Shown: positions 12,157 to 61,366 of the stretch, one piece after another
How the letters are laid out: every line of letters starts with the position of its first letter
How positions within the stretch are numbered: the stretch's first letter is position 1
Origin: an uncultured Kiritimatiellota bacterium
GTDB taxonomy: Bacteria > Verrucomicrobiota > Kiritimatiellia > RFP12 > UBA1067
Direction of reading: 5' to 3'
Length of the DNA stretch: 64,000 nt
NCBI GenBank assembly: GCA_934635385.1
Contig: CAKTZI010000011.1
Coordinates: 20,488 to 84,487, forward strand
Translations under genes and position numbers: made by a program
Notes under the pieces: model-generated
Database searches by the model: none
What the model was told of the DNA's origin: nothing
The model's input: only the letters and a program-made list of their open reading frames with translations

Positions 12157-15100
12157 AGTTTCACCCCATCAAGATAAACAGATCCCAGCACCTCGCGGAC
12201 GGCCTCATGCCGCAGCTTGCGCACGCCCGCCGTGCCGAATTCGTCAATTGTGAACGTCTGCGTCTCGTCCGCCGCAAAGCACTTCCAAGGTTCCGCGCCG
12301 TCAGTCGTTTGGGGGACATTCCAGCCCAAGGGAATGCACCAGACGTTCTCCCCTGCAATCCATCCCACGGACAGGGATTCGGAGAGCTGTCCGCCCGGCG
12401 TCATGCGCGGATACGGTTGCGTACACGCCGCCGTGTCACGCGCATCAATGATGTTCTCGTCCAGGACGCGAAACCAGACTCCAGCACCATTCTCACGTGA
12501 GTGGCAGCGGTCTCCGTCAAAGTAGGAATGCGTGAAATAGCCGGTCTGAACGCCCATCGTCGATGGCACTTCCTCGACCCAGATCTCCTGGAACGAGACG
12601 TCCAGAGGAAGAACCTGTATGTCCAGCTGAAGTCCGATTCCGCCCGCGCTAAGCGACGAAAGCCCGTATGTGACTACGCCGGGATTGAGCGCGCGGACGC
12701 CTGACGGCTCCACGACCAGGATCGAGGGCGTATAGGAGACTCCGCCGCAAACGACTTCCAGCGGATTCGACTCGGCGTCAAGCGGGCATCGGTATGTTTT
12801 GTCCTTCTGCATCCTGCCACCGCCTTTCACATTCCACGAAACGTTCGCGACTTCTGGTTCAAAACCGCAGTCGATCAATTCATAAACGCCAAACTTATGT
12901 CGTCCTTCGCTTCCGTTTCCGCCTTCAATCTGAATCGGTCTAATTGTGACCTTGACCGCCGTCAGCGTCGCCTCGGACGTGATCTTCTCCCCGCTCTCCT
13001 CCTCGGTGAAGGTCGCGACGGCCTTGACGTCGCCCGCGCCGCCGCTCGCCGACTGCGCCCGGTACCTCACCTTGATCTTGAACGACTCGCCCGCCTCGAC
13101 CGTCCCCTCGCGCGGCAGGAACGAGCCGCCCACACGTTCGAGCCGTCCGCCGTCGCGCAGCTCGAAGGAATACGAGCCGCCCTTCGTCCCGCCGTAGACG
13201 CTGAACTCGGCTTCGGTCTCCGTCGAGCGCCGCGCGACCGTCTCGCCCGGCGCGTTCTCGTACTCGTCCTCGAAGATGATCGCGGACTCGGAGAACGTCG
13301 CCGAGACGGACAGCCCCTGCGGCTCGTGGTCAGGCTCGTCCTCATCGGGATACGTCGGCCTGTCGGGCGGCGACTCGTGCGAGCAGCCGCAGGGCCAGTC
13401 CGCGAACGACAGCTCGAAGCCCTCGAAGCGGCACGTGTACGTCCCGACCGCGCAGCCTCCGCAGCCGCAGTTCCCGTCGCAGCTGAACAGGGGCACGGTG
13501 AACGGCGGTGGCGGCGGCTCAAGGCAGCAGTAGTTGCCGTTCCACGACACGTCGGCGCCGTCGGGCGCGGGCGTGAAGCGCACGCGCCGTCCGCCTGACG
13601 CGGCGCGGGGCGCGACGGCGGACGCACGGAACGCGGCGACGGGCGAACCGTCCACGATCTCGCACCGGACAGGGCGGCAGACCGTCAGGTGTCCGTCCGC
13701 GTCTACGCCAATTTCGATGTCGGGATGGGATGCGCCGACGCAGACGAGCGTCAGCCGGCAATCGGCGGTGTAGGACTTGCCGAGCAGAAGGACGACGCGG
13801 TTCGTCTCGCCGGCCTTCGCGACGAACGATGGATCGGGCAGGTTCGACGCGCCGCTGCCCGTGAACGTCACGAGGGCGTTCGCGGCAGGGGCGACGAGAT
13901 CGACCCAGTAGTAGTTGTTGGAATGCGCGATGGAGGACAGGTCTTGGCGCGGGCCGAACTGCGGCTCGTCCGCCGCGACAAGCGGCGCGCCGTCCACGTC
14001 ATTCGGGATGCCGTCGTCGTCCCAGTCGTCAGGGTTGACGCGGCGATAGACGCGCTCGATGTCATTGGAGCGCGCGATGAAGTCGCCGTTCGGGAAGAGC
14101 TCGAGCTGCGCGTTGACGGCTGGATGGTCAACAACCTGTCTCTTGACCACGGAAGACACGGAAGCCACATTCGTGGACACAGAAAGGATTAGCGAAGAAT
14201 GCCCTTCGGGGTTCTCCAATCCGTTTTCTCCCAACATGTTCCCAGAAGTTGGGAGAACAGGGGTTGAGGAATCCCGAAGGGCTCCTTTCTCTAACCCATT
14301 CCGTGTCACCGGAGGCGTTTCATCTCTTTCCGTGGTTTGAGAAGAAGAAACGGACACTTCCGCTCTCTCATACGGGTTGCCGAGGAAGAAGTTCTCCCAC
14401 GTCAGCACGACCGAGCCGTTCGTGGTCGCCGCCGTCCAAAGATAGGACTGTCCGTGTCGCGCGAACATCGGCGCGCCGATGACGGCGATCTCGTTCGAGG
14501 CGTTCCGCAGCTGCGGGCGCACCTTGCCCCACGTGTGCGCCCAGAGCGACGTCACGACGTGGCGACCCAAAGGGAAAAGGAAGATGGAAGAAGGAAGAAG
14601 TGCGGAACGGTCCGCTTTCCTGTGCTGTCCGACGGCCTCGGATTCCGCAACAGAGGAGTTGTCCTCCGCACTTCTTCCTTTTCCCTTCTTCCCTTTTCCT
14701 TCCTCCCCCAACATCACCCATACACGCCCCCTGTAGGCGTCGGTGAGATGCCACGTGCTGACGAGCCGTGCGTTCGTCGGTCGCGTGTAGGAAACGGCCT
14801 TGTTCGTCCGCACCGCTTCGAGGCGGTAGCCCCGCACGACGTCGTTGGATGAGAGAGTGGGGTTGCTGTCGCCTAACGCGGAGTTGTAGGAGGAGGGGAG
14901 GCACGGAGTTTCTTTACTGTCTGTCGAAGTTTTGTCCACGGATTGACACGGATTATCACGGATTTGGATTTGTGTCGCTTCGTGTTGATTCGTGGATGAT
15001 CCTTCTCCCGATCCGTGTGAATCCGTGAAATCCGTGGATGCCTCTCCGTGCCTCCGCATCTCCTCATCCTCCGCATTAAGCGTCGCAGACCCCTCTGCGG

Positions 15101-15368
15101 ATGCCGCAGGCATCACTTCCTCAATTCGTGCCGATTCGTGAAGATTCGTGGCTACATTCGCCGGTTTCTGCGCGAAGACCGTCGCGACGACGACCGCCGT
15201 CACGAGGTCGGCCTTGCTGGACGGCGGCAGCCTAACGAACTGCTCCAACAACCCAAGCAGAAACTTTCGTGCGCACACAGCGGTCGCCGCCGCGAGGCAT
15301 CCGCCCGCAAGAGCCACGCAAGCCCACACGAAGTACGGTGTACGAAAGATTTCCGCAACTGTTCTCAT
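12150..15368 (-). CDS. Large membrane-anchored hypothetical protein (1072 aa) carrying several in-frame repeat-element insertions in its N-terminal third.
   Basis: Long ORF with an N-terminal TM helix (YFVWACVALAGGCLAAATAV) and the start preceded by TGATATAAT. The C-terminal two thirds have ordinary protein-like composition. No family recognised. Confidence 0.7.
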   Translation of the reverse strand: MRTVAEIFRTPYFVWACVALAGGCLAAATAVCARKFLLGLLEQFVRLPPSSKADLVTAVVVATVFAQKPANVATNLHESARIEEVMPAASAEGSATLNAEDEEMRRHGEASTDFTDSHGSGEGSSTNQHEATQIQIRDNPCQSVDKTSTDSKETPCLPSSYNSALGDSNPTLSSNDVVRGYRLEAVRTNKAVSYTRPTNARLVSTWHLTDAYRGRVWVMLGEEGKGKKGKGRSAEDNSSVAESEAVGQHRKADRSALLPSSIFLFPLGRHVVTSLWAHTWGKVRPQLRNASNEIAVIGAPMFARHGQSYLWTAATTNGSVVLTWENFFLGNPYERAEVSVSSSQTTERDETPPVTRNGLEKGALRDSSTPVLPTSGNMLGENGLENPEGHSSLILSVSTNVASVSSVVKRQVVDHPAVNAQLELFPNGDFIARSNDIERVYRRVNPDDWDDDGIPNDVDGAPLVAADEPQFGPRQDLSSIAHSNNYYWVDLVAPAANALVTFTGSGASNLPDPSFVAKAGETNRVVLLLGKSYTADCRLTLVCVGASHPDIEIGVDADGHLTVCRPVRCEIVDGSPVAAFRASAVAPRAASGGRRVRFTPAPDGADVSWNGNYCCLEPPPPPFTVPLFSCDGNCGCGGCAVGTYTCRFEGFELSFADWPCGCSHESPPDRPTYPDEDEPDHEPQGLSVSATFSESAIIFEDEYENAPGETVARRSTETEAEFSVYGGTKGGSYSFELRDGGRLERVGGSFLPREGTVEAGESFKIKVRYRAQSASGGAGDVKAVATFTEEESGEKITSEATLTAVKVTIRPIQIEGGNGSEGRHKFGVYELIDCGFEPEVANVSWNVKGGGRMQKDKTYRCPLDAESNPLEVVCGGVSYTPSILVVEPSGVRALNPGVVTYGLSSLSAGGIGLQLDIQVLPLDVSFQEIWVEEVPSTMGVQTGYFTHSYFDGDRCHSRENGAGVWFRVLDENIIDARDTAACTQPYPRMTPGGQLSESLSVGWIAGENVWCIPLGWNVPQTTDGAEPWKCFAADETQTFTIDEFGTAGVRKLRHEAVREVLGSVYLDGVKLW
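14197..14282. repeat. Imperfect inverted repeat (about 35-bp arms) inside a CDS.
   Basis: gcccttcggggttctccaatccgttttctcccaac pairs with gttgggagaacaggggttgaggaatcccgaagggc. Confidence 0.7.
14572..14707. repeat. Purine-rich/pyrimidine-rich inverted repeat element inside a CDS.
   Basis: gggaaaaggaagatggaagaaggaagaagtgcgga pairs with tccgcacttcttccttttcccttcttcccttttccttcctccc. Confidence 0.75.
14870..15152. repeat. Nested palindromic elements. The outer element is CGGAG-type (14870-15082), the inner is CACGGAT-type (14936-15037), and a CACGAAT-type tail follows.
   Basis: Outer arms are cgcctaacgcggagttgtaggaggaggggaggcacggag and ctccgtgcctccgcatctcctcatcctccgcattaagcg. Inner arms are ccacggattgacacggattatcacggattt and atccgtgtgaatccgtgaaatccgtgg. 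Confidence 0.8.
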
Positions 15369-27782: not shown

Positions 27783-27791
27783 GTCTGGTCC

Positions 27792-30700: not shown

Positions 30701-31097
30701 CCAGCGTCAGCGTCGGCACCGTCGCCTCGGCATACTTCGTCGGGCCGAATGGCATGAACACGCGGCGGAACCAGAAGTCGCCGTCCGTATTGGCTTGGTC
30801 GTCACGCTTGTAGCCGCAGCCCGGATACGGATCGTCGTAGATGCCGTAGAAGCCCTTGCGGACATCCGTCTCGGACATCTCGTACTTGCCCCAGTTCTCG
30901 TCGTCGTTGTAGGCGCCGTCCAGCTCGTCGATCGCCCGCGCCAGCGCGGCACGCACCAGGTAGCGCGCCGCGATGTTGCGCCGGAGATAGCTCGACGGCA
31001 GTCGGCTCTGGCGCATGTAAATCGAGAAACTCACGGCGGAAACCACCATGAACGACAGAAGACCAAGCACGATCAACAGTGCAGAACCTTTTCTCAT
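27792..31097 (-). CDS. Giant GspK-like minor pseudopilin (1101 aa), comparable to Verru_Chthon cassette protein A-type proteins.
   Basis: MRKGSALLIVLGLLSFMVVSAVSFSIYMRQSRLPSSYLRRNIAARYLVRAALARAIDELDG is a GspK-type N-terminus. The ATG at 31097 overlaps the stop of the gspG-like gene (ATGA). The track ORF is extended to 31343. Confidence 0.7.
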   Translation of the reverse strand: MRKGSALLIVLGLLSFMVVSAVSFSIYMRQSRLPSSYLRRNIAARYLVRAALARAIDELDGAYNDDENWGKYEMSETDVRKGFYGIYDDPYPGCGYKRDDQANTDGDFWFRRVFMPFGPTKYAEATVPTLTLEALAYLPPALIDDVRKFSRYTRTAAWRSLPYEAGRYAYTAVNVSDLFDVNRLRADAPRDSGPNRITLAPLCSQTAGDPFDINTGMATTLDTLQQKWSSSGYDTPFVSLADFNLLAGTSGFTPFMNYIGKTSTKLLKNGDANAANALFITDTWFPAATSVASTSGSSGTSAASVTYDLAGAHQPFLNFDARDWSQVLTSRNTQDNVGDIFEKNLGLGLVALYDYLDSDQKPISLALPTVEAVPMVTGVSCPAQLQPEIESRDNGSLDIEIPNPNYDPEDPSQPEKWKIKRSWSKLTFTGFGNRVQTQVLMAYPFKRMKTTDRFDSNFKLRGVLRVFAAPANMGCRPADSNNNLYPSQQEQNAWQSGSRVRNGVASFFCEAASPSPGSAFNKDIEKTQDAIDDSVKLTFDCNEIDMPIMYVVTEECTNGKGPDGFENNKTYLTLDGLKLNDATFRPLTADGNVDGTWNKLTAKPQADFMTDTANLGAAALSDSFAGFTGTYKLYAAVWLQVMDGNGNVVDMAPASYKDDMEFLNASGSVPQGVMARKCGDGTPLLSFCADYDVTFTEKIADDLKAPASYSLWKTLYAVDPRYNFAPEDWFAKNANTAVSKSEWTGEIFPLLGQNGRDRDIFMFVSDQEYLQAIGELQFLPVMGLMEGNENFLSGDYSPDFNGGSFANRTSASGGSFANGGRFWRTYTAYDNGDGTDPIYAMPYQGREIRFQAGVGDFKVNPYSDDDRVLSAALVGTPFDYYVASTNGNQRQDGGKKNEFIDSLDLGKSLSQCSFGEAPLAKMSAEDLLSIMDKFRSVFGERAKSSDATVVADWVGGFDQMEWQLLDSNQKNDENKAFMGINPLEAASESPLHQVDRKFLYSFWRECFENRQQLFLVFVRAEPMSTSGGSVGKAMPSSQLGGRAVALVWRDPAVPSYQSGERKTRQALADGTGDSVRSDIKDVRENCPPHRTRVLFYHQFEE

Positions 31098-31552
31098 TGA
31101 CGCTCCTCGTCCGTCAGCCGGTAGAAGTTTGGCAGGTTGGGGGCGCGCGTGAACGTGGTCGATCCCGACGTCTCGCTCTCGCCATTCAACTTGCGGATGC
31201 AAAACCTGTACGTCTGTCCCCACGGATCGACGACCTGTCCGCCGCGCAGCTGGGCGTTGTAGAGAACCGGCACGTCGTCGCCGCTTTCGGACTTCTCGTT
31301 GCCGAGAATCATGCCGAGGTTGCCCTCGGTCGCGTCTTTCCATCCGCCGGTGTCATAGTCCACCAGCGAACGGTTCTTGGCATAGTTGCGGAAGCCAAGA
31401 ATCGCGTTCGTGATCTCCTTCGCGTCCTGCGTCGCCTTGGCGATCTTCGCGCGCCGCCGCGCCTGGCCCATGCTCGACCCGACAGCTCCGACGAGAACCG
31501 CGATCATCCCGATCACGACAAGAAGCTCCAACAGCGTAAAGGCCCGTCTCAT
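31094..31552 (-). CDS. GspG-like (major-type) pseudopilin.
   Basis: MRRAFTLLELLVVIGMIAVLVG, plus a DPWGQTYRF motif (DPWGxxY, typical of GspG). Confidence 0.75.
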   Translation of the reverse strand: MRRAFTLLELLVVIGMIAVLVGAVGSSMGQARRRAKIAKATQDAKEITNAILGFRNYAKNRSLVDYDTGGWKDATEGNLGMILGNEKSESGDDVPVLYNAQLRGGQVVDPWGQTYRFCIRKLNGESETSGSTTFTRAPNLPNFYRLTDEERQ

Positions 31553-32064
31553 CAGTTCACCTCCTCCGGGAACGTGTTGACGTCATCCGACGTGCCCCAC
31601 TTCCGGTCCGGGCCGGCGCTCCACACGCCGACCACGACCCCGCCTTCGCGGTTCGGGTGGCGCGCGCTCGACCCCGACGTCTGCGCCGTGCCGTTCAGCG
31701 CGCTCCTGATGTCCGTCACCTTCGTGGACACCTGCCCCCAGTTCACGGTGTCGAACGCGCGCTTGCCCTGGCGCAGCGTGTTGACCGAGCCTTTCTGCCA
31801 GATCGAGACCGTGCGGTACTGAAGGTCGCGATTGTCCGAACTGCCGCCGTGCGCGTTCTTCTGGGTGATGCCGGGCAGAAGGTCGTCCTCCACGTCATGG
31901 TAGGTGCCGAGCGACATCCGCTCCTCGCTCAGGTCCGAAACGCTCGCCAGCCCCGACGTCCAGGCGACGGACGACTGGTTGAAGAGCATCGTCAGGATCG
32001 TCACGAGCATCGACAAGAGCAGCGACGCCACGAGAAGCTCAAGTATGGTAAAGCCGCGTTTCAC
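31552..32064 (-). CDS. Pseudopilin, GspJ-like.
   Basis: KRGFTILELLVASLLLSMLVTILTMLF. GTG start overlapping the upstream stop (GTGA). Confidence 0.65.
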   Translation of the reverse strand: MKRGFTILELLVASLLLSMLVTILTMLFNQSSVAWTSGLASVSDLSEERMSLGTYHDVEDDLLPGITQKNAHGGSSDNRDLQYRTVSIWQKGSVNTLRQGKRAFDTVNWGQVSTKVTDIRSALNGTAQTSGSSARHPNREGGVVVGVWSAGPDRKWGTSDDVNTFPEEVN

Positions 32065-32651
32065 TTGTCATCCCTCCCCTGATAGCGGACCTCCGTATAG
32101 TAGACGGGCTGGCTCATCAGGGCGTCCCGCCGACGCGCAGCCCGGAACGCGAGCGAAATGGTCGCCCCCTTGCGCGTCGCCACCAGTCCGTAGAAATACT
32201 CGCTCGGCAAGGCCGACGGCCACGTGATCGACAGGCTCGGGCTGCCGTCCATCTGGGCCCCGGCAATTTCCTGAAACGCCTGCTTGGCCTTCGCCGTGCA
32301 GCCGGAATCGACACGGTAAAGCCCGGAGGCGTCGGAGCCGACCTTCTGGACGTAATCCGCCCAGCCCTTGCCGCTTTGCGTGATGCCGTCGCAGACCTTG
32401 GAACCTTCGCCCTGCGGTTCGCTGCCGATCGACGTCCAGCCCTGCCACGTCAGGTTGGTCGCCGACAGCTTCGCGACAAGCGGCGCGAAGACCGCATCCG
32501 CATAGCCGGCGACGGCCACGTCCTCCGTCGACTGGCGGCTTTCGCGCATGCCAAGCGAATAGAGGGACACCATCGCGAGGACGCCCGTCGCCATGATGAA
32601 GATGGCGAGGTTGACCTCGATGAGCGTAAAGCCCTTTTTCACAGCCGTCAT
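32061..32651 (-). CDS. Pseudopilin, GspI-like.
   Basis: MTAVKKGFTLIEVNLAIFIMATGVLAMVSLY. ATGA overlap. Confidence 0.65.
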   Translation of the reverse strand: MTAVKKGFTLIEVNLAIFIMATGVLAMVSLYSLGMRESRQSTEDVAVAGYADAVFAPLVAKLSATNLTWQGWTSIGSEPQGEGSKVCDGITQSGKGWADYVQKVGSDASGLYRVDSGCTAKAKQAFQEIAGAQMDGSPSLSITWPSALPSEYFYGLVATRKGATISLAFRAARRRDALMSQPVYYTEVRYQGRDDK

Positions 32652-33559
32652 ATCGTCGCATCCTCCTTGCTCGTCGCCGTGCCGGCCTTGTGGTCAGGCT
32701 TGGGGTTGCCGCCGGAATCCGGGCGGCAGAAATACACGTCGATCGATTTGTCGCTATCCGGCGAATCCGGGTCGAAATAAAGCGCCTTGACGAAGCTGAC
32801 GTCGCCGACTTGGCTCGGCACGTTCCCGCTGCCGAACGTGAAGTCGTTCGGCAGAGAGACGGTCGCGAACTCGAAGCCATAGCCGTCGCCGACCGTCCAC
32901 TGGGACGGTTCGTACGCGCTCGTCCCCTTGTTGACGAACGCATAGACCCGGATGTTCAGCTCGCCCTCCCCGGACTCGGATCGCGCAAACTTGAAGTCCT
33001 GCATATCCTCCGGGCCGGAGATGGTCTGGCCGGAAGCCGTCTGGCTCGACTCGTCCGCATTGTTGGCCCACCCGCGATACGTCGTGCCGTTGACGTCGAG
33101 CATCAGCACCGCATCGGCGACGACCGAATACTTCATGGCGCTGATCTGATTGTCGTCAAAGCGCCAGAGCTTCATGCCCTTGCCCTCCTTGGCCTCGTTC
33201 TCGTCCGTCACCACGTCGTAGCTGTTGGCGAGGTCGGCGAACTCGTCGGCGATGAGGTCGCCCTGTGCCCTCGTCACGCGCCCCGCGCGGCGCACCGCGA
33301 CCGCCTCGCCGACGACGATGGCGTTCTCGTCATCCGTCGCCGCGCGCACGAGCCGGTTGTAGCAATAGACCACGGTCGGCGAGCGGTCGATCATCGCCCG
33401 TTCCTTTGCCGCCTGGAGGAGGGATGTCACGACCGCCGTCGCGCCGCGCTCCGACATGCCGCGCTGCAGCGCGTTATAGCCGCTGACCGCCGCGACGCCG
33501 AGGAACGACATGATCCCCACGACGACCATCAGCTCCATCAATGTGAACGCTTTTCTCAT
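32648..33559 (-). CDS. Pseudopilin, GspH/FimT-like.
   Basis: MRKAFTLMELMVVVGIMSFLGVAAVSGYNALQRG...LLQAAKERAMIDRSPTVV. Confidence 0.65.
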   Translation of the reverse strand: MRKAFTLMELMVVVGIMSFLGVAAVSGYNALQRGMSERGATAVVTSLLQAAKERAMIDRSPTVVYCYNRLVRAATDDENAIVVGEAVAVRRAGRVTRAQGDLIADEFADLANSYDVVTDENEAKEGKGMKLWRFDDNQISAMKYSVVADAVLMLDVNGTTYRGWANNADESSQTASGQTISGPEDMQDFKFARSESGEGELNIRVYAFVNKGTSAYEPSQWTVGDGYGFEFATVSLPNDFTFGSGNVPSQVGDVSFVKALYFDPDSPDSDKSIDVYFCRPDSGGNPKPDHKAGTATSKEDATI

Positions 33560-33562
33560 CGC

Positions 33563-34195
33563 TCATTCCCAGTCTTCGGGATACTGCCTGCCCGGATTCT
33601 GCCGCGACACGCTTACGGAATCGGTGCGCCCGTTGTAGGTGATCCAGAACCGGCAGAACTTGCCGGCCCGCGTGCCCTGATAGCCGAACGCCATGTCGTT
33701 GACCGAGAGGCGGTTCTTCGCCCCCGCGCGCGTCGCCGACGCGAAGTCCTGACCGTTGACGCAGTGCTTGTCGCCGCAGTAGGAGTCGTACGTCTTGTCG
33801 TCGTGGTTGTCGTAGCATCCCTCGTTGTTGTTCTTCACCTTGTTCGCCTCCGCGACGAACAGCGCCTGCGCGTCCACGAGCTGCATCGTCGCGCCCGAAC
33901 CGACCGACTTCTTGACAATCTCGCGGAACACGCTGTCGGCTTCGCTGGCCGTCAGCGTGACCGTCTCCTTCTCGCCCATGTTCTGCGCATGGGCCTCGAT
34001 CGCCGACGGCCATTCGCCCTTCTGCGCATAGTAGGACGAAATCGCCTGGCTGAGGACGCTGGCCATCGCGGACGCGCGCTTGGCGCGCCCGTTGCGGATG
34101 GAGCCGACCGTCGCCGTCGAGACAATGCCCAGCAGGATGCCGATGATGGCCACGACGACCAGCAGCTCGACAATCGTAAAACCCTTCTTCATCAT
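33563..34195 (-). CDS. Prepilin-type N-terminal protein (pseudopilin).
   Basis: MMKKGFTIVELLVVVAIIGILLGIV. A GGGAGG Shine-Dalgarno sequence is upstream. The track ORF is extended to 34291. Confidence 0.7.
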   Translation of the reverse strand: MMKKGFTIVELLVVVAIIGILLGIVSTATVGSIRNGRAKRASAMASVLSQAISSYYAQKGEWPSAIEAHAQNMGEKETVTLTASEADSVFREIVKKSVGSGATMQLVDAQALFVAEANKVKNNNEGCYDNHDDKTYDSYCGDKHCVNGQDFASATRAGAKNRLSVNDMAFGYQGTRAGKFCRFWITYNGRTDSVSVSRQNPGRQYPEDWE

Positions 34196-34208
34196 TTCGC
34201 CTCCCTGA

Positions 34209-34829
34209 TTATTCCTTGACCTGTTCACGGCCCCAGCTGTAGATGTCGTCCTTGCGAAGGCCAACCTTGTACTTCTCGAACTTGCCGTCATAGCCGGCGC
34301 ACCAGACCGCGACCGACCCGCGAATCGTGACGGACTCGCCCTCGACGTTCGCCGTCACGAAGCCGCGCCCGTCCGTATCGACGGCGTAGCGCAGGCGATG
34401 CGTCTTGATCGTGCCGCCGGACGGGACTTTCGTTCCCTCGCTCACGCCCTGCCCCTTCATGCGGCGAATCACGTCCTGCGCCCACGGCGAGACGACGCCG
34501 CACTGGTCAAGGGCCGTCGTCTCCTTCTTCGTGTCGTCATACGAAAGCGAAAGACCGTTGTGCTTGGCGATCGTGTAGGCGATCTTCTCGTCGATGCCGT
34601 TTTCGTTGTTGCTGCCGGTGAGAATTCGGCGTGGCCACGAACCCTCTTCCTGGTAGATCTTCTCAAGGGCGGTGGCCACGTTGTGCACGAGTTCCTGTCC
34701 TTTCGCCTTCTGCGCCTTCTTCGTCGATGACGTGAACGCCGCCAGGCTGGCGCCGATCAGCACCGCGAGAATGCCGAGAACCACCAGCATTTCAATGAGG
34801 GTAAAGCCCTTTCTCCCGTTGTTCATCAT
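34209..34829 (-). CDS. Prepilin-type N-terminal protein (pseudopilin).
   Basis: MMNNGRKGFTLIEMLVVLGILAVLIGASLAAF. Confidence 0.7.
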   Translation of the reverse strand: MMNNGRKGFTLIEMLVVLGILAVLIGASLAAFTSSTKKAQKAKGQELVHNVATALEKIYQEEGSWPRRILTGSNNENGIDEKIAYTIAKHNGLSLSYDDTKKETTALDQCGVVSPWAQDVIRRMKGQGVSEGTKVPSGGTIKTHRLRYAVDTDGRGFVTANVEGESVTIRGSVAVWCAGYDGKFEKYKVGLRKDDIYSWGREQVKE

Positions 34830-34842
34830 TCTTCTGCCTTTC

Positions 34843-36033
34843 TCAATGGCTCATCTTGACGATGTCGTCGCCTTTCCATTCCATCACCGTCGCCTGGTCG
34901 GCGGTGTTGAGCTTGCGGATTTCCTCGTCCGACACCCACTGGGGGAAGGACTTTCCGTTCTTGCCCGCGCTCCAGAGGATGTAGCTCTGATGCGGCGGCG
35001 GCGAATAGTAGTAGAACTCGTTTCCCCAGCCGTCCACGACCGTCAGGTCATCCAGGACGTACTGGTCGCCGCTGTTGCTGTCCTTGCCGCCCTGCGACTC
35101 GGTCGAATACAGCACCGGATGCGGATTGTTGGCCGAGATGTTCGAGAATGCCTCGTCAGAATCCTGCAGCTGGACGCCATAGATCTCAAGGGGATACTGC
35201 ATGCGAAGCGTCCGTTCGAGATTCGGCAGCCAACGCGCGCAGACGGCCTGCGACGACAGGGCGGCGATCTTCCACTTGTAGCGGCGCACGTCTTCGTTCA
35301 CATCACTCCATTCCTCATACTGCACGCCGTCTTCGAAACGGCAGGGCAGTCGGTTGTTGGCCGTCCACGACTTCTGGTTCTGGTAGAGCGTGTCCATGTT
35401 CGACCCGCCGCCCAGCATGATGAGGTAGCGCGGCAGCAGATAGCTGAGGACGCCGAACTTGAAGATCTGCACGTCCGTCCAGTCTTCGTCGTCTCGCTTC
35501 GACGACAGCATGCCCTCGTCCGTAATCGCGCGAAAGCCCTTGGCCAACACCGGATTGTTCTTGAACTCCTTGTCTTTCGGATCGTCCGACTGCGACCGCT
35601 TGATCAGCATGTCCGAAACCTTCTTGATATAGTCCGCAATGCCCGGCTTCGTAAACGGGTAGGCCATGCCGATTGGCTGTGACTTGCAGGCCGCCTCCAC
35701 CCGTTCCCAGCTGATTTCCGTCGCCCGCGACGCGCTGCCCGCCGACGCACTGTCGCCCTTCAGGCCCGGATTTTTCTTGCCGACCTGCTGGATGCCATGC
35801 CCATCGACGTCGACCATGTAGTCGCGGCTGCCGTGAAGGCGAACGGGCGGATAGCACCCGTAGGCCGCGTAGTAGCCGGAGAGGCAGTTTTCCAGTCGCT
35901 GCATACGGTTGACAGTCTTGTTGCGCGCCGAGGAATCGCCCCCCGCTCCCGTGATGCGAAACGAAATCGTCATCAGCGTGACGATCACGACGACGACAAT
36001 CAACAGTTCGACGAGTGTAAAGCCCTTTTTCAT
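34843..36033 (-). CDS. Prepilin-type N-terminal protein with a large C-terminal domain; first gene of the pseudopilin operon.
   Basis: MKKGFTLVELLIVVVVIVTLMTISF. The ATG at 36033 lies 9 nt after TGGTATAAT. Confidence 0.7.
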   Translation of the reverse strand: MKKGFTLVELLIVVVVIVTLMTISFRITGAGGDSSARNKTVNRMQRLENCLSGYYAAYGCYPPVRLHGSRDYMVDVDGHGIQQVGKKNPGLKGDSASAGSASRATEISWERVEAACKSQPIGMAYPFTKPGIADYIKKVSDMLIKRSQSDDPKDKEFKNNPVLAKGFRAITDEGMLSSKRDDEDWTDVQIFKFGVLSYLLPRYLIMLGGGSNMDTLYQNQKSWTANNRLPCRFEDGVQYEEWSDVNEDVRRYKWKIAALSSQAVCARWLPNLERTLRMQYPLEIYGVQLQDSDEAFSNISANNPHPVLYSTESQGGKDSNSGDQYVLDDLTVVDGWGNEFYYYSPPPHQSYILWSAGKNGKSFPQWVSDEEIRKLNTADQATVMEWKGDDIVKMSH

Positions 36034-36042
36034 TCTTGGAGA

Positions 36043-36087: not shown

Positions 36088-37506
36088 TCACTTGCCGACG
36101 CAGAAGCGCGAAAAGAGGCTGTCGAGCAGGTCGGACGAGTAGGTCGCGCCGACGAGCGCGCCAAGCGATTCGGCGGCCGCACGCACCGCGTTCCCCGCCA
36201 AAACAAGGTCAAGCGGCACATTTTGCAGGAGGGGCGTGAGGTGCGCGCGCGCCGCACACAGGGCCGACAACGCCCGGTCGTCAGGGGCGTCGGACGCCCC
36301 CTCCGACGCGGCGGACGCCGCCCGCCGTTCGAGCGCGGCCACAATCGCCCGCCTGAGTTCGCCCAGCCCCTCGCCCGTCTTCGCCGAGACGTTCAGCCCT
36401 TCGCCGCGCCCCAAATCGCACTTGGGATGGATGGGGAGGAGAGTGGGAGAAGCAGTCTCGGACGTGAGTGATGTGAGGGACGCGGGGGACGTGAGAGCCG
36501 AAAGAGACGCGAGGGACGCAGTGGAGCGAACGCTCGGTTCGCCTGACAAGTCAATCACAATGTCGGCTTCGGCGATCAACTTTTCGGCACGCTTCACGCC
36601 GGCGGCTTCGAGCGCGTCCTCCGTCTCGCGCAGCCCCGCCGTGTCAACGAGCCGAATCGGCCAGCCGTCCAAGTCCAGCCACGCCTCGACCGAGTCGCGC
36701 GTCGTGCCCGGCACATCGCTCACGAGCGCGCGGTTCTCCTCCAAGAGCGCATTCAGGAGCGAACTCTTGCCGGCGTTCGGCGGCCCCGCGAGAACGACCC
36801 GCGCGCCGTCGCGCAGGATGCGTCCCGCACGGACGCGCGTCGCCGCCGTGCCGAGCGCCGCGTCGAGCGCGGCGAGCGACGTGCGTAGCGACGCGAAGAA
36901 GCTGTCGGGCAGTTCGCCCTCGTCGATGTCGAGCGCGTGCTCCAGTTCGGACGACAGGTCGAGCGCGCGGTCATAGAGCGCGCGGTGCGCACGCGCGCGG
37001 CGTCCGGCCAGGCCGTCCAGCGCGGCGTCCGCCGCGCGCGCGGTCTTCGCCTGAATGAGGTCAAGAACGCTTTCCGCCTGGTCATAGTCGAGCTTGCCGT
37101 TCAGAAACGCGCGCTCGGTGAACTCGCCGCGCCGCGCGAGCCGCGCCCCGGCGGCGAAGCAGGCCTCCAGCACACGGCGCGGCGTGACCGCCCCGCCGTG
37201 GCACTGGAACTCGACGACGTCTTCGCCCGTGTAGGAATGGGGCGCGCGAAAGGCGAGAACGACGGCGGTGTCGAGGGGGGGGAGGTTTGGGAGGTTTGGG
37301 GGTTTGGAAAGTTTGGGGGGTTGGGAGGTTGGAAACAGGGCGCAGACGCGCGCGCACGGCAAGCCACCGGACGGAGGCGCGAAGCGGCCGCGCGTCAGGC
37401 GCGTGGCGACGGCGAACGCCTCAGGCCCCGAAACGCGCACGACCGCGACCCCGGCAGGGCCGGGCGCGGTCGCAATCGCTGCGATGGTCTCATTCTGATT
37501 CAGCAT
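36088..37506 (-). CDS. mnmE: tRNA modification GTPase MnmE (TrmE).
   Basis: TIAAIATAPGPAGVAVVRVSG, YTGEDVVEFQCHGG, GPPNAGKSSLLNAL, and the C-terminal FCVGK. It carries two low-complexity in-frame insertions. Confidence 0.9.
   Translation of the reverse strand: MLNQNETIAAIATAPGPAGVAVVRVSGPEAFAVATRLTRGRFAPPSGGLPCARVCALFPTSQPPKLSKPPNLPNLPPLDTAVVLAFRAPHSYTGEDVVEFQCHGGAVTPRRVLEACFAAGARLARRGEFTERAFLNGKLDYDQAESVLDLIQAKTARAADAALDGLAGRRARAHRALYDRALDLSSELEHALDIDEGELPDSFFASLRTSLAALDAALGTAATRVRAGRILRDGARVVLAGPPNAGKSSLLNALLEENRALVSDVPGTTRDSVEAWLDLDGWPIRLVDTAGLRETEDALEAAGVKRAEKLIAEADIVIDLSGEPSVRSTASLASLSALTSPASLTSLTSETASPTLLPIHPKCDLGRGEGLNVSAKTGEGLGELRRAIVAALERRAASAASEGASDAPDDRALSALCAARAHLTPLLQNVPLDLVLAGNAVRAAAESLGALVGATYSSDLLDSLFSRFCVGK
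36459..36525. repeat. GGGACGYGAG-type short tandem repeats inside mnmE.
   Basis: gacgtgagtgatgtgagggacgcgggggacgtgagagccgaaagagacgcgagggacgc encodes SLASLSALTSPASLTSLTS. Confidence 0.65.
37281..37336. repeat. GGTTTGG (CCAAACC) ~10-bp tandem units inside mnmE, in the opposite orientation to the murI copy relative to the coding strand.
   Basis: ggaggtttgggaggtttgggggtttggaaagtttggggggttgggaggttggaaac encodes QPPKLSKPPNLPNLPP. Confidence 0.8.
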
Positions 37507-37520
37507 CGCCGCACGTGATT

Positions 37521-37548
37521 TCTCCGTGCCTCCGTGTCTCCGTGTGAG
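37521..37548. repeat. Solo half-arm of the CGGAG-type element in the mnmE/antiporter intergenic spacer.
   Basis: tctccgtgcctccgtgtctccgtgtgag is nearly identical to 52546-52573. Confidence 0.7.
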
Positions 37549-41856: not shown

Positions 41857-41860
41857 GGGA

Positions 41861-41944
41861 AAATAATCGAATAATCGAATTGGAGAATAATCGAATAATC
41901 GAATAATCGAATTGAAGAATTGGAGAATTGGAGAATTGGAGAAT
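41861..41944. repeat. Two adjacent 9-bp tandem arrays: AATAATCGA (about 5 units) and GAATTGGAG (about 4 units).
   Basis: aaataatcgaataatcgaattggagaataatcgaataatcgaataatcgaattgaagaattggagaattggagaattggagaatt fills the ACT-UPF0210 spacer. Confidence 0.85.
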
Positions 41945-42217
41945 TTAGATGCGGTGCATCTTCTCGAAGATCTCGGACTTCTGGCAGCGGATGTGCAGCC
42001 CCAGTTCGAGGCCGAGCTTCGAGAGTTCCGCACCCACCTTGTCGAAGGTCTTCCGGCACTTCGCGCCATCGACGATCATCATCATGTTGAAGTAGCCGCC
42101 CACGACGGTCTGCGAAATGTCGAGAATGTTGATTTCGTTCTTGGCGAGGTAGGCGCTCGTCTTCGCGATGATGCCAACGGTATCCTTGCCGACGACGGTG
42201 ATGATGACTTTTTTCAC
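41945..42217 (-). CDS. ACT-domain protein (UPF0237).
   Basis: [39 protein letters not shown] start with a strong AAGGAG Shine-Dalgarno sequence. Confidence 0.85.
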
Positions 42218-52084: not shown

Positions 52085-54592
52085 TCACTTGTTCAATGTC
52101 GTGTGGCTGCCGCGTTTGATCAAGACGGCGAGGACGGCGATGTCGGCTGGGTTCACGCCGGGTATGCGGCTTGCCTGTGCGAGCGTTTCGGGACGGAATT
52201 TCTTCAGTTTCTCACGGCTCTCATAGCGCACAGCCAAGCACTTGTCATAGTCGAGCCATTTCGGAATGACGAGTGCTTCGTCCTTCTTGGCTCGTTCAGC
52301 CGCTTTCTCCTCCTGCTCAATGTACGGTGCATAATGACGCATAATCATAACTTCTCGGTCAATTCGAGAAAGGCCGTTGAGATTGGTTGGCGTGAAAGGA
52401 GTTGTAATGGGATGGCTCACACGGAGGCACGGAGACACGGAGGTTTTTAACATTGAAGACACGAAAACGTCACTTGCGGGCACGAATTTCGTGTCTGAAT
52501 GTCCGTTTCTTCTATTTTCGTGTTTATCACATTCTCTTACAAAATTCTCCGTGCCTCCGTGCCTCCGTGTGAGGCTTTCATTTTTATTGAGCCTTGTCAA
52601 AATCTCCTGATACTCTTCTTCTATCGCATCAAGCGTTTCCTTCGACAGAATGCCAATGCGCTTGGCCGCAGACAGCAATCGATAGTAGGCATTGTCCTGA
52701 CGCAGGATGAGACGTCGTTCGGCACGGCTCGTGAACATACGGTACGGCTCGTCCGTGCCCTTCGTGACAAGATCGTCAATCATGACGCCAATGTAGGCAT
52801 CCTGTCGGCTGAGAACGAGCGGCTCTTCGCCTTTGACCTTCAATGCGGCATTGATGCCCGCCATGAGGCCCTGCGCGGCCGCTTCTTCGTAGCCCGTCGT
52901 GCCGTTGATCTGTCCGGCGAAGAAAAGACTGGGAATGCGCTTCGATTCGAGCGTGTGTGTCAGCTCGCGTGCATCGATGCTGTCGTATTCGATGGCATAG
53001 GCGTAGGCGAGAAAATCGGCATGTTCAAGTCCGGCAATCGAATGCACCATCTCTTCCTGTACCTTTTCGGGTAGCGAACAGCTCAAGCCGTTCGGATAGA
53101 TGACCGTGCCGTCCTTGTCCTCAGGTTCGAGAATGACGTGGTGCTGATGGGCTTCGGCGAAGCGTACGATCTTGTCCTCAATGCTCGGACAGTACCGAAC
53201 ACCCGTTCCGACGATTTTTCCGCTATAGAGAGCCGAAACCGCGAGGTGGTCACGGATGATTTGGTGTGTCTTGTCGTTTGTATGTGTCATCCAACACGGC
53301 AACTCCGGCAAATTGTTCCACGTGGAACAACTTGGGAATGCCTGCGGCGCTGAACGCGGAGAAGACGGAGAGGCGGAGACGCGGAGTTTCAGTTCAGATA
53401 CACTCTCCAAATCATCTCCGTGTCTCTCATTCTCCATTCCCTCCGCGTTAAGCGACAGCAACCCGGTCGAACAGGGAGAAGCCTGCGGCGCTGAACACGG
53501 AGAAAACGAAGAGGCAGAGGTGCGGAGTCTCGGATCTGGTGCTTCATCCTTTAAAGAAACTTCATCTCTTCCATTCTCCTTTATCTTCGTGTTAAGCGTC
53601 GCAGACCTCTCTCGCTCTCCCTCGCTCCGTGTCAATCCGTGATAATCCGTGGCCAACTCACACGGAGGCACGGAGGCACGGAGGTTTGTCGGGTTGTCTA
53701 CAGTTTCTCCGTGCCTTCCATTCTCCCTCACCTCCGTGTTCAGCGTCGCAGACATCTCTCCCTCGCTCTCAATCCGTGCCAATCCGTGATAATCCGTGGC
53801 TAAAAAAGTGTGTTCCACGTGGAACAATGGGCGAGGGGTGGCGCCATCTTGTCGCTGGCAGACGCTGAAATCACAGCTTGAAGCCTTGAGACGCGGTGGC
53901 GTACCTGTCTTCAGGCGAATCAGCTCGAAACCAAGAGCTGAAAGGCTCTCTGAAAGCTGATTGACGGCGGGGCGTCCGTCGCCGCCGCTTTCGCGGCACT
54001 GGTCGCCGATCCAAACGCGGCCGCGCAGGGCCGTGCCGCTCGTAATGACGACGGTTCGCGCGGTGAGTGTGCCGTGACATTCCGTTTTCACGGAATGCAC
54101 GGGATAGAGAACTGGTGTTAAATCAGCGTTTAGTTTGGCTGACGATTGGCTGGTTTGAAATGAATCAGCGTTTTGTCTAATGAGTTTTGAAGGCTGCCCG
54201 ACTTCAATACCGATCACGGCATCTTCGAGAACGGTCAGGTTGGGTTGCGCGGCGATGACGGCTTGCATACGCGCGGCGTATTCCCTCTTTGCGCATTGGC
54301 AGCGCGTCGCCCAGACGGCGGGGCCTCGGCTCAGGTTGAGAATCTTCGCCTGAAGGGCGGTGGCATCCGCGTTCTTGCCCATTTCGCCGCCCAGCGCGTC
54401 GAGCTCGCAGACGAGGTGGCTCTTGGCCAAGCCGCCGATGGACGGGTTGCAGGGCATGCGCGCAATGGCATCTGCACGGGAGGTGACGAGAAGAGTCGAC
54501 ACGTTCATGCGCGCCGCCGCAAGGGCGGCTTCGGCGCCGGCATGTCCGCCGCCCACGACAATGACGTCAAACTGTGACTGTAAAAAAGACAT
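52085..54592 (-). CDS. mnmG: tRNA uridine-5-carboxymethylaminomethyl modification enzyme MnmG (GidA). At 835 aa it is enlarged by three in-frame insertions.
   Basis: [66 protein letters not shown] and [15 protein letters not shown]. Typical MnmG proteins are about 620-630 aa. The ATG at 54592 lies 6 nt after TGCTATAAT. Confidence 0.9.
52416..52573. repeat. CGGAG-type palindromic element with a nested CACGAA-type core, inside the mnmG 3' region.
   Basis: Arms are ctcacacggaggcacggagacacggagg and tctccgtgcctccgtgcctccgtgtgag. Confidence 0.85.
53313..53827. repeat. Composite of three palindromic repeat units inside mnmG, bracketed by two copies of the palindrome TTGTTCCACGTGGAACAA.
   Basis: Palindromes at 53313-53330 and 53811-53827. 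Units at 53340-53462, 53481-53652 and 53653-53800. The unit ends (gcctgcggcgctgaac... and ...gttaagcgacagcaac) are shared with 60042-60167 and 61047-61316. Confidence 0.85.
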
Positions 54593-57714: not shown

Positions 57715-57733
57715 ATGCAGAATTATCGCGCAA

Positions 57734-57823
57734 GCGGGTCCGGAGAAGCTTCGCAACGGTGCGAAGTGCCGAAGGTGTAACTCCCCGAAAGGGTCGGGGA
57801 CGATCTCTCAGGCAAAAGGACGG
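57734..57823 (+). ncRNA. Glycine riboswitch (single aptamer).
   Basis: cGGAGAAg, P2 hairpin gcttcgca/tgcgaagt, GCCGAAGGTGTAA, P3 hairpin tcccc/gggga, then CTCTCAGGCAAAAGGAC. This matches the conserved glycine-aptamer core. It lies upstream of an AGCS symporter, a known genomic context for this riboswitch. Confidence 0.8.
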
Positions 57824-57840
57824 AAAGGCAAGACAAAACA

Positions 57841-59859: not shown

Positions 59860-61355
59860 TGAGGCGCACCGTCATTCTCGCGGCGGGGGATTTTCCGCCG
59901 CGCGGCTCGGAGCCCGAACGGCTCCTGCTGTCGGCGGCGCGTGTCGTCGCCTGCGATTCGGCGGCAGCGACGTATCGGCAGCGCTTCGGCCGATGGCCGG
60001 ATGTCATCATCGGGGATCTGGACAGTTTCTTGCCAAAAGACGCCTGCGGCGCTGAACACGGAGGAGACGGAGAGGCGGAGACGCGGAGAGTCGAGCCACA
60101 CGCCCTATCCTTCCAAAGAACTCCGTGCCTCCCTTCCTCCATCACCTCCGTGTTAAGCGAAAGCAACAAAGACGCCTGCGGCGCTGAACACGGAGAAACG
60201 GAGGCACGGCGGAGGGTTGTGCGGATTGATGATGATGAGACGAACGACCTGGACAAGGCGATTGCCTATTGCCGGACGCAGGGGTGGGCGGATTTGGTCA
60301 TCGTCGGCGCGACGGGCAGGCGCACGGATCACGCGATCGGCAACGTCTATCGTGCGCTCGCGGCGGAAGTCCCGATCGTCGAGGCCGAGGGCGCTTTCCT
60401 GCCCGTGCGCGGCAAGCTGACGTTTCGGACGTGGAAGGACGCGGGCGTGTCCGTCTTCGCGCCTGATCCGGCGACGCGGATGACGTCGCGTGGCTTGCGC
60501 TGGAAGCTGGACGGCGTGCGGTTCGCGAACCCGTACTGCGCGACGCTGAACCGCGCATCATCCGAAACGGTGACGGTCACGAGTACGCATCCGGCGTTCG
60601 TCTACGCGGCGCGCAATCCCGCCGCCGTGCGGGCGGTTGTCGCGCTCGGCTCGAACGTCGGTGCGCGCGCGACGTATCTGAAGCGGGCGCTCGCGGCGCT
60701 CGCGGCGCTGCCCGAGACGCGGCTGCTGGACGTGAGCGCGGTGCGCGAAACGGAGCCGGTGGACGTCCCGGCGGAATTTGCCGCGCAGAAGTTCCTCAAC
60801 CAGGCGGCGGTCTTCGAGACGACGCTTGCGCCACTTGCCTTCTCGCGCGCGATGCACGCGGTCGAGGATCGGCTGGGGCGTGTCCGCACGGTGCGGAATG
60901 GCCCGCGCACGATTGATCTCGACCTGATTCTCTTCGGCGACGTGCGCCTGGACACGTCGGAACTGACCCTGCCCCATCCGCGTGCGCAGGAACGCGCCTT
61001 TGTCCTCGATCCTCTCAACGAACTCGGCATCAGACTTCCTCTTGTGGCCTGCGGCGCTGAACGCGGAGGTGACGGAGCGTCGGAGACGCGGAGCCCCGTA
61101 CCGAGTGTCCCATCCCCCACAGAACCTCCGTGTCTCCCATCCTCCGCTATCTCCGTGTTAAGCGAAAGCAACTCGGTCGTGCGGGAAGAGGCCTATGGCG
61201 TTCAACGCGGAGGAGGCGGAGAGTCGGAGACGCGGAGTTCCGTGTCGGGCGCCCCATCTCCAAAACAACCTCCGTGTCTCCCCTCCTCCATCACCTCCGT
61301 GTTAAGCGACAGCAACCCGGTCGGACAGGAAGATGCCTACGGCGTTCAACGGTAA
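59856..61355 (+). CDS. Fusion of thiamine pyrophosphokinase (N-terminal) and HPPK/FolK (C-terminal), interrupted and extended by in-frame repeat elements.
   Basis: TPK part: IIGDLDS, DDDETNDLDKAI and GATGRRTDHAIGN. HPPK part: VVALGSNVG, RNGPRTIDLDLILFG and LTLPHPRAQERAFVLDPL. No stop separates the two halves. The ATG overlaps the upstream stop (ATGA). Confidence 0.8.
   Translation: MMRRTVILAAGDFPPRGSEPERLLLSAARVVACDSAAATYRQRFGRWPDVIIGDLDSFLPKDACGAEHGGDGEAETRRVEPHALSFQRTPCLPSSITSVLSESNKDACGAEHGETEARRRVVRIDDDETNDLDKAIAYCRTQGWADLVIVGATGRRTDHAIGNVYRALAAEVPIVEAEGAFLPVRGKLTFRTWKDAGVSVFAPDPATRMTSRGLRWKLDGVRFANPYCATLNRASSETVTVTSTHPAFVYAARNPAAVRAVVALGSNVGARATYLKRALAALAALPETRLLDVSAVRETEPVDVPAEFAAQKFLNQAAVFETTLAPLAFSRAMHAVEDRLGRVRTVRNGPRTIDLDLILFGDVRLDTSELTLPHPRAQERAFVLDPLNELGIRLPLVACGAERGGDGASETRSPVPSVPSPTEPPCLPSSAISVLSESNSVVREEAYGVQRGGGGESETRSSVSGAPSPKQPPCLPSSITSVLSDSNPVGQEDAYGVQR
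60042..60216. repeat. One complete 126-bp CGGAG-type unit plus a truncated second unit inside the TPK domain.
   Basis: gcctgcggcgctgaacacggag...ctccgtgcctcccttcctccatcacctccgtgttaagcgaaagcaac. The direct repeat aaagacgcctgcggcgctgaacacggag occurs at both ends. Confidence 0.85.
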
Positions 61356-61366
61356 GCGAAAGCAAC
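61047..61366. repeat. Two tandem 144-bp units (126-bp palindromic element plus 18-bp linker) and a collapsed unit in which the two termini are joined directly. Together they form the 3' tail of the TPK-HPPK ORF.
   Basis: Units start at 61047, 61191 and 61335. The third is gcctacggcgttcaacgg|taagcgaaagcaac and contains the stop codon. Confidence 0.85.

Follow-up and report, generated by a model that had tools for sequence, protein, structure and literature searches.

The window analysed here, a 64,000-nt stretch of genomic DNA from an uncultured Kiritimatiellota bacterium, carries on its minus strand an 860-aa open reading frame (ORF) for mnmG (gidA), and a 158-nt palindromic sequence at 52416-52573, hereafter the B element, lies in frame within it (Table 1). 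The identity of the host gene follows from Pfam (GIDA, E = 6e-142, plus SAM_GIDA_C) and from matches to the MnmG chains of the PDB (E ~1e-147). MnmG usually comprises ~620-630 aa and the PDB chains ~630-650 residues as deposited, and the excess length in our protein is found in three places: residues 157-192, a block of ~160 residues at 286-446 that sits between the motifs FHVEH and CSTWNN, and residues ~697-752, which correspond to the B element. The last of these falls between blocks aligned to residues 265-501 and 552-633 of Aquifex MnmG. It is poorly conserved and is located between the catalytic part of the enzyme and its C-terminal helical bundle.

The B element consists of two outer arms, each built of a tetranucleotide tag and three octamers, around an AT-richer core. 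The second arm departs from the exact complement of the first at two positions. A repeat search extended the arms to 33 nt (91% complementarity, 92 nt apart) and detected perfect mini-hairpins of 10 nt and 9 nt in the core, of the CACGAAA/TTTCGTG type. With 0.77 expected, the two-unit octamer motif has 12 occurrences in the window, a count reached by none of 100 shuffles. In mRNA sense the element folds at -81.5 kcal/mol (z = -10.2) with a continuous helix of 27 bp, while the DNA fold has a z of -10.6. Because one strand of the CACGGAGR octamers is without T and its complement without A, the octamers cannot encode a stop codon, and a T-free array is open in all six frames. Arm 1 itself holds a single T and is stop-free in five of six frames, the CTCA tag giving rise to a TGA in one minus-strand frame. 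As delimited, the palindrome is not a multiple of three in length; the net excess over orthologues without the element is ~40 codons (112 versus 71-72 codons from RQDNA to RIDREV).

A sequence-only reading of this DNA had proposed a CGGAG-type palindrome at this place, with 28-bp arms enclosing CACGAA-type mini-hairpins, had quoted an in-frame translation of it, and had placed it in the C-terminal linker between conserved MnmG blocks, with a nearly identical solo arm elsewhere in the window. Our analysis bears this out at each point: the arms are exactly as written there and the z-score is near -10, the two perfect mini-hairpins are found, the translation equals that of the minus-strand 860-aa ORF, the Aquifex alignment, Pfam and AlphaFold agree on the location, and the solo arm matches at 96%. 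Overlooked were the further insertions in mnmG and in neighbouring genes, the turnover at the insertion hot spot, and the occurrence of the arms in many phyla.

To place the inserted peptide on a structure, as that reading had suggested, we used an AlphaFold model of MnmG built from 101 orthologues. Residues 170-184, 285-449 and 707-752 have a pLDDT below 50 and the rest a pTM of 0.70, and the model agrees with solved MnmG structures at a target-normalised TM of 0.76-0.81. The B-element peptide is modelled as coil between helices 676-703 and 760-765, that is, as a predicted disordered loop on an otherwise normal MnmG fold. We then compared the window with L004, a relative that carries the same element (orthologue and relative stretches are labelled by L-numbers, with L004-L006 and L008-L011 being mnmG orthologues). 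The conserved mnmG blocks show a dN/dS of 0.05-0.07 at a dS of 0.34-0.63, which speaks against the pseudogene that the sequence-only reading had named as an objection. The inserted blocks, in contrast, show a dN/dS of 0.57-0.67, and the B element itself carries one synonymous and six non-synonymous changes (dN/dS ~1.7). These values indicate strong purifying selection on the enzyme, to which the inserted peptide is not subject. At least eight contigs from three samples encode the identical 860-aa protein. No form of the element in the other orientation was seen in the three samples or in L004.

Turnover at the mnmG loops and a dispersed family of elements

Among the 101 mnmG orthologues the three loops vary over 7-63, 4-214 and 19-99 aa. 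The closest orthologues (73-85% identical in the alignment, 600-909 aa) differ almost solely at these loops. The mnmG locus is a hot spot with fast turnover among orthologues.

Every orthologue compared at the DNA level holds some repeat-derived filler in the linker. L004 has the same B element as the window, and L009 has the same arms (27/28 and 28/28 identical) around a core that cannot be aligned with that of the window. An ATTCGTG-repeat arm plus a B right arm is found in L006, a solo (GCACAGAG)x3 arm in L010, short CACGGxTTAT or other small palindromes in L008 and L011, and an unrelated insert in L005.

The history of the linker in L004 involves recombination. L004 and L005 are sisters (dS 0.16), and the B element is in L004 only; window and L004 stand at a dS of 0.52, yet their B elements are 95.6% identical. 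In a three-way comparison of informative sites, L004 resembles L005 rather than the window both upstream (59 versus 11 sites) and downstream (29 versus 10), whereas it is window-like over a mosaic tract of ~300 bp that contains the element, with 17 window-like against 2 L005-like sites in the 75-nt 5' flank. This pattern implies that lineages have exchanged the linker allele with the element through homologous recombination. Constraint at the nucleotide level had been considered as the cause of the low divergence between the two elements, and was given up in favour of the recombination tract.

Elements are also nested. L004 has three tandem units of ~147 nt where L005 holds one, and an extra element of 81 nt (27 codons), encoding CAAETRSVSEGRSHSDSERSELPARAR, occurs in L004 in two copies (~5915-5995 and ~6266-6346). 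Both copies are situated at CAC(A/G)^GAGG within an A-type arm (see below), at the same relative position; L005 provides the empty site for one of them, and the other lies in a unit missing from L005. This 81-nt element, which is not in the window, is not a strong hairpin (z = -1.4), and no target-site duplication is visible at it.

Within the window, B arms are present at three loci and are accompanied by a second type of hairpin, family A, of 144 nt with arms of ~46 nt (GCCTGCGGCGCTGAAC + (NNNCGGAG)x4). Its five full-length copies share 69-81% identity over 127-144 nt, loops included, and are distributed over three loci: two in the central block of mnmG, one in thiamine pyrophosphokinase and two in the tail of HPPK. 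In addition to its two family-A hairpins, the central mnmG block contains one hybrid hairpin and two ATCCGTG-repeat modules, and a copy of the perfect palindrome TGTTCCACGTGGAACA stands on either side of it. The CSTWN and FHVEH motifs that these copies encode are kept even in orthologues without insertions, so that the elements sit between the halves of what may be an older hairpin. Five element clusters in the window were found from the DNA alone, and in all five the host frame is free of stops, while most other frames contain 1-9. The openness of the host frames is explained in part by the inability of the octamer arms to encode a stop. The elements make up a dispersed family of related sequences, in which nesting and quick turnover are observed.

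The arm in other bacterial phyla

We scanned one genome per species for exact copies of the 23-mer CACGGAGRCACGGAGRCACGGAG (matching stretches L012-L131 are genome contigs and L132-L166 viral contigs). It occurs in at least 120 genome stretches, against ~0.07 expected by chance by our own estimate, and in 35 viral-contig stretches. The carriers belong to Planctomycetota, Acidobacteriota, Verrucomicrobiota, Kiritimatiellia, Lentisphaeria, Myxococcota, Geobacteraceae, Chloroflexota, Nitrospirota, Gemmatimonadota, Acidimicrobiia, several Proteobacteria and candidate phyla, and include long-read assemblies as well as the isolate Novipirellula rosea JCM 17759.

The arm consensus is TTCAC(CACGGAGR)2CACGGAG-AA, with the octamers preceded by (a/t)TTCAC and followed by AA. 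Among the matches listed, the number of units is exactly three in 173 of 186 arms; 76 of 127 arms have a partner (within 420 nt) that faces inwards at a distance of 6-390 nt, compared to a partner on the wrong side for 1 of 109. Purines make up 439 of 447 spacer bases, most of them fixed as such by the construction of the search pattern. The cores enclosed by arm pairs are unrelated between genomes and related within a genome, for example in L090. The window variant CTCA...TGAG is found again in L113, a Kiritimatiellaeota genome from the human gut. As in mnmG, arms in other phyla are found in frame within genes, namely those for an Lhr helicase, an MmeI/Eco57I-type methylase, a class I aminoacyl-tRNA synthetase, the DnaE PHP domain and HsdS; they are also present in intergenic regions and unrelated genes. 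The cyanobacterial matches are plain tandem arrays.

The surroundings of 155 arm loci, compared by all-against-all BLAST of their ORFs, share only generic gene families, together with one orthologous pair of Xer-type recombinases from two related Acidobacteriaceae. No arm pair enclosing a gene was seen. A search of annotated plasmids and phages gave one unannotated plasmid match and zero phage matches. The literature searched contained no description of the arm sequence or of the arm peptides, although coverage was incomplete and an earlier account is possible.

We tentatively suggest, with somewhat less than even confidence, that TTCAC-(CACGGAGR)2-CACGGAG-AA marks a superfamily of hairpin elements, as yet undescribed, in many phyla and in viral contigs, whose stop-free arrays would permit the in-frame colonisation of genes, and whose arm conservation would imply a conserved protein that recognises them. 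The sharing of an arm family across phyla is the part of our results that could be new in kind.

Other features of the window

The coordinates of the elements are collected in Table 1. The solo B-type arm has no partner arm nearby. The gene downstream of it, mnmE (36088-37506), is the partner of mnmG and contains translated tandem arrays of 9 nt, GGGAGGTTT x5.9 and GGACGCGAG x6.7 (37280-37330 and 36460-36519), whose peptides are PPKLSKPPNLPNLPP-like and SLASLSALTSPASLTSLTS-like. No stop separates the domains of thiamine pyrophosphokinase and HPPK, which share a single open frame (59862-61355) and possibly form a fusion protein. This ORF ends inside the arm-less family-A unit that follows the HPPK hairpins, a unit that resembles a hairpin-deleted or unoccupied site.

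Table 1. Location of the B element, its host gene and related elements in the window
Feature	Position	Strand	Remarks
mnmG (gidA) ORF, 860 aa	52085..54667	-	likely true start Met26; B element at ~ residues 697-752
Outer arm 1 of B element	52416..52443	.	CTCACACGGAGGCACGGAGACACGGAGG = CTCA + (CACGGAGR)x3
Core of B element	52444..52545	.	AT-richer, locus-specific sequence
Inner mini-hairpin of core	52457..52496	.	AGACACGAAA / TTTCGTGTCT, 10 nt, 100% complementary
Further segment in core	52515-52523		TTTTCGTGT
Outer arm 2 of B element	52546..52573	.	TCTCCGTGCCTCCGTGCCTCCGTGTGAG = (YCTCCGTG)x3 + TGAG
Perfect 16-nt palindrome	53314..53329	.	TGTTCCACGTGGAACA, read as CSTWN, one side of central mnmG block
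Second, larger mnmG insertion block (central block)	53335..53812	-	residues ~286-446
Hybrid hairpin in mnmG	53657-53684 and 53706-53753		B-type left arm and A-type right arm
Second copy of 16-nt palindrome	53811..53826	.	TGTTCCACGTGGAACA in other frame, FHVEH, opposite side of central block
Solo B-type arm	37521..37548	.	intergenic; mnmE start codon (37506) follows after 14 nt
Family-A hairpin + extra left arm	60041..60215	+	in frame, splits catalytic domain of thiamine pyrophosphokinase
Two tandem 144-nt family-A hairpins	61046..61333	+	C-terminal tail of HPPK (folK)
Arm-less unit	61335-61366		GCCTACGGCGTTCAACGGTAAGCGAAAGCAAC, after HPPK tail hairpins, contains stop codon
A-type hairpin + CACGGAT and ATTCGTG 10-nt repeat modules	14856..15150	-	open solely in frame of 1072-aa ORF

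Repeats of other sequence are also present. Long AT-rich octamer arrays at 41858-41945 (AATAATCG x6.4 followed by GAATTGGA x4.6) have the 8-nt period of the CGGAG arms with a different sequence. Two further palindromes have arms made of short tandem repeats, one at 20910-21030 (GGACGCA-type 9-mers, 29-nt arms 63 nt apart) and one at 14570-14701 inside the 1072-aa ORF (GGAAGAA-type, 37-nt arms 58 nt apart). Tandem repeats with periods of 69 nt and 267 nt (75-79% matches) at 16138-16840 probably represent a coding repeat domain. A glycine riboswitch aptamer (Rfam RF00504) was detected at 57730-57833 on the plus strand with 47.6 bits, above the gathering score. On the minus strand at 27733-36034, at least five genes start with the prepilin-type methylation motif M-K/R-K-x-F-T-L-I/M-E-L-L-V-V, which is typical of the PVC superphylum. 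As a weak hint to the taxon, these genes and the recurrence of the CTCA...TGAG variant in L113 suggest, without proving, the source lineage.

Origin of the element and comparison with known systems

In the reading that we consider probable, a hairpin-forming non-coding repeat has left a copy, the B element, in a linker of functional mnmG that is permissive and little conserved, a situation similar to that of the Rickettsia palindromic elements (RPEs) but in another bacterial group. The element would comprise conserved arms of ~28-30 nt (a tag, CTCA here and TTCAC elsewhere, plus three CACGGAGR) around a variable core. It would travel with the mnmG mRNA and most likely be translated, giving a disordered loop of ~55 residues at the protein surface; translation is suggested by the fact that every allele keeps frame and openness, which would serve no purpose in a segment that is removed. 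Since the octamers are free of stops in six frames, selection in an essential gene need remove only cores that bear stops or lengths that break the frame. The element itself is presumably selfish or neutral rather than useful. For the origin of new copies we postulate an enzyme acting in trans that recognises the arms by their sequence, perhaps on single-stranded hairpins. Neither the 155 arm loci nor the lead offered by class 3 HuH-Y1 proteins (see below) yielded a candidate for such an enzyme.

A number of observations weigh against this interpretation. First, no transposase or recurrent gene is found beside the arms in the 155 loci. Second, a clean empty site for the B element was seen in no orthologue compared, because each has other repeat-derived filler there, and neither the B element nor pairs from other phyla show a visible target-site duplication. 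Third, the core was found nowhere else, and that of L009 is not alignable despite the shared arms; this locus-specific interior sets the B element apart from a classical family of MITEs (miniature transposable elements with inverted repeats), where the interior is conserved. A HMMER search with the inserted peptide over 1.84 billion representative proteins returned one match, to an unrelated RECDKH repeat protein, which we attribute to chance, so that the core is not a dispersed peptide. Fourth, the low divergence of the element between window and L004 is uninformative on transposition, being due to recombination. Lastly, a helix of ~27 bp in a coding region is a strong obstacle to ribosomes and a potential RNase III substrate, and a cost or a regulatory effect is possible. 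Other searches were likewise negative: a word-indexed protein search with the 56-aa peptide gave zero candidates, Pfam and NCBIfam matched no family to the inserted mnmG peptides, and Rfam 15 gave no match to the element that reached its gathering score, only generic miRNA-precursor hairpins below the threshold.

The alternative that survives best, which we nonetheless regard as unlikely, is that the element arose in place and does not move. Octamers would have expanded by slippage in unconstrained loops, with template switching or gene conversion subsequently producing the palindrome, and similarity between loci would reflect mutational bias or concerted evolution. The arms are indeed tandem 8-mers, and the window contains many other arrays of about three copies with periods of 8-10 nt and different sequences. 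The plain tandem arrays of Cyanobacteria, the separate core of each B copy, and the expansion and contraction of the tandem 147-nt units between the sisters L004 and L005 point in the same direction. However, tags that are not themselves repeats (CTCA/TGAG; TTCAC/GTGAA) are kept at unlinked loci and across phyla, and the arms listed have a nearly constant length of three units and partners that are oriented inwards in 76 cases against 1. The resemblance of the family-A copies at three loci, which extends to their loops, also argues for dispersal of copies.

It is improbable, in our view, that the host has co-opted the hairpin as a regulatory RNA or DNA structure, for instance a site for RNase III, a cause of translational pausing or a determinant of mRNA stability. 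Such a role would be consistent with the great stability of the mRNA-sense hairpin, with arms that stay near-perfect while cores diverge, and with the position of the solo arm within the 5' leader of mnmE, the partner gene. Furthermore, both variable R positions are complementary in 13 of 23 arm pairs, where ~6 would be expected. Close orthologues, though, are without the element or have unrelated filler at the same place, the same elements are found in unrelated genes and intergenic regions, and generic Rfam hairpins below threshold do not amount to a family.

A strong hairpin within a coding sequence could also mean that the segment is not translated, being removed from the mRNA in the manner of an intron or bypassed by the ribosome in the manner of the yeast mitochondrial bypass elements. 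We give this very little credence, as all alleles seen, in eight configurations with 40-290 extra codons, are in frame and stop-free, and the Rfam search gave no intron or ribozyme signature. The alleles were retrieved by a protein search, with a bias towards intact ORFs; the five window clusters, however, were found from DNA and are all open in the host frame.

Less probable still is an intragenic inverton, in which the 28-nt inverted repeats would serve as invertase sites that switch the MnmG linker between two sequences. Invertons within genes are known (bioRxiv 10.1101/2023.03.11.532203), and here the flipped segment would likewise keep the frame and lack stops (element frame +0, 0 stops), with an ORF at 52377..52610 reading through on the other strand. 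The chance of an open core in that frame is ~0.1 by our own estimate, which makes this weak evidence; only one orientation occurs in the three samples and the L004 lineage, and the arms are found solo and in many unrelated settings. The unusual length of the protein (860 aa versus ~625) might raise the suspicion of a pseudogene or an assembly artefact, which is hardly credible given a conserved-block dN/dS of ~0.06, the identical protein on at least eight contigs from three samples, and an intact modelled MnmG fold.

With the B element read as a settled copy of a dispersed hairpin repeat, its closest analogue in behaviour is the RPEs, which were reportedly described by Ogata et al. in 2000 and 2002 and are very probably unrelated to it in sequence. 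RPEs are AT-rich, whereas the arms here are GC-rich and T-free, in a host of 54-73% GC; on the basis of this composition, homology of the arms to RPEs is very unlikely. The likeness concerns size and placement: RPEs are multi-copy palindromes of ~100-150 bp, comparable to the B element with 158 nt and family A with 144 nt and five copies, and the copies in mnmG, thiamine pyrophosphokinase and the HPPK tail would similarly add an in-frame peptide at sites compatible with the fold. The elements described here differ in that their arms are three octamer repeats, that in the B type the arms alone are conserved and the interior is not, that the arm module occurs in many phyla rather than one genus, and that several elements are stacked per loop. 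In a recent review, RPEs are presented as palindromic repeats of several families, found in frame in unrelated housekeeping genes whose products remain functional (PMC10969869).

The repetitive extragenic palindromes (REP/REPIN) with RAYT transposases are likewise short dispersed hairpin repeats, often in inverted pairs and occasionally in genes. They lack a target-site duplication, of which none is visible at the B element either. They are marked by a GTAG or CGTC tetranucleotide (PMC3733652), whereas our arms have no such tag and start with CTCACA in the window and with TTCAC-CACGGAG elsewhere. Moreover, the REP unit is an imperfect palindrome of 20-40 bp, while the arm is a direct octamer triplet that is not self-complementary, and most copies in this window are intragenic. 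Class 3 HuH-Y1 (TnpA-REP) proteins occur in Planctomycetes, Acidobacteria and Proteobacteria (PMC3733652, PMC6006769), a range that overlaps that of the arm. As a direct match this REPtron-like class was rejected, the structures given for it, for example CAGAGCCGCGACCGTTAGGGAGCG, being unlike the arms (PMC6006769); no Y1 gene was found in the arm surroundings at the 155 loci.

Bacterial MITEs such as ERIC, the Coxiella QMITE and Correia/NEMIS resemble our elements in their terminal inverted repeats, small size, non-coding nature, hairpin transcripts (predicted ones in our case) and occasional in-frame fusions (PMC10969869, PMC5896051, PMC2759123). The likeness to MITEs is only partial: we found no parent insertion sequence with the same ends, and the B interior varies in length (6-390 nt) and sequence, although family A does share its interior. 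Long inverted repeats within protein-coding genes, both arms of which are translated there, are also described from mitochondria of Nematomorpha; these are organellar and are not known to form a dispersed family in which the arm sequence is conserved (PMC6649704).

The colonisation of housekeeping genes by in-frame palindromes has so far been treated as a peculiarity of Rickettsia, and in the 2024 review its occurrence elsewhere is called merely conceivable (PMC10969869). Here it is seen at high density in a high-GC bacterium of the PVC superphylum that probably lives in the gut, with several elements stacked in one gene, such that MnmG orthologues range from ~590 to 909 aa. This has consequences for gene calling, for length filters on orthologues and for protein-family alignments in these lineages, and it offers a natural experiment on the tolerance of an essential enzyme to disordered insertions. 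If the arm superfamily holds true, it would constitute a general source of new disordered protein segments; and if the arms are a real, undescribed family, an unknown DNA- or RNA-recognising activity would be common to many bacteria of soil, water and gut.

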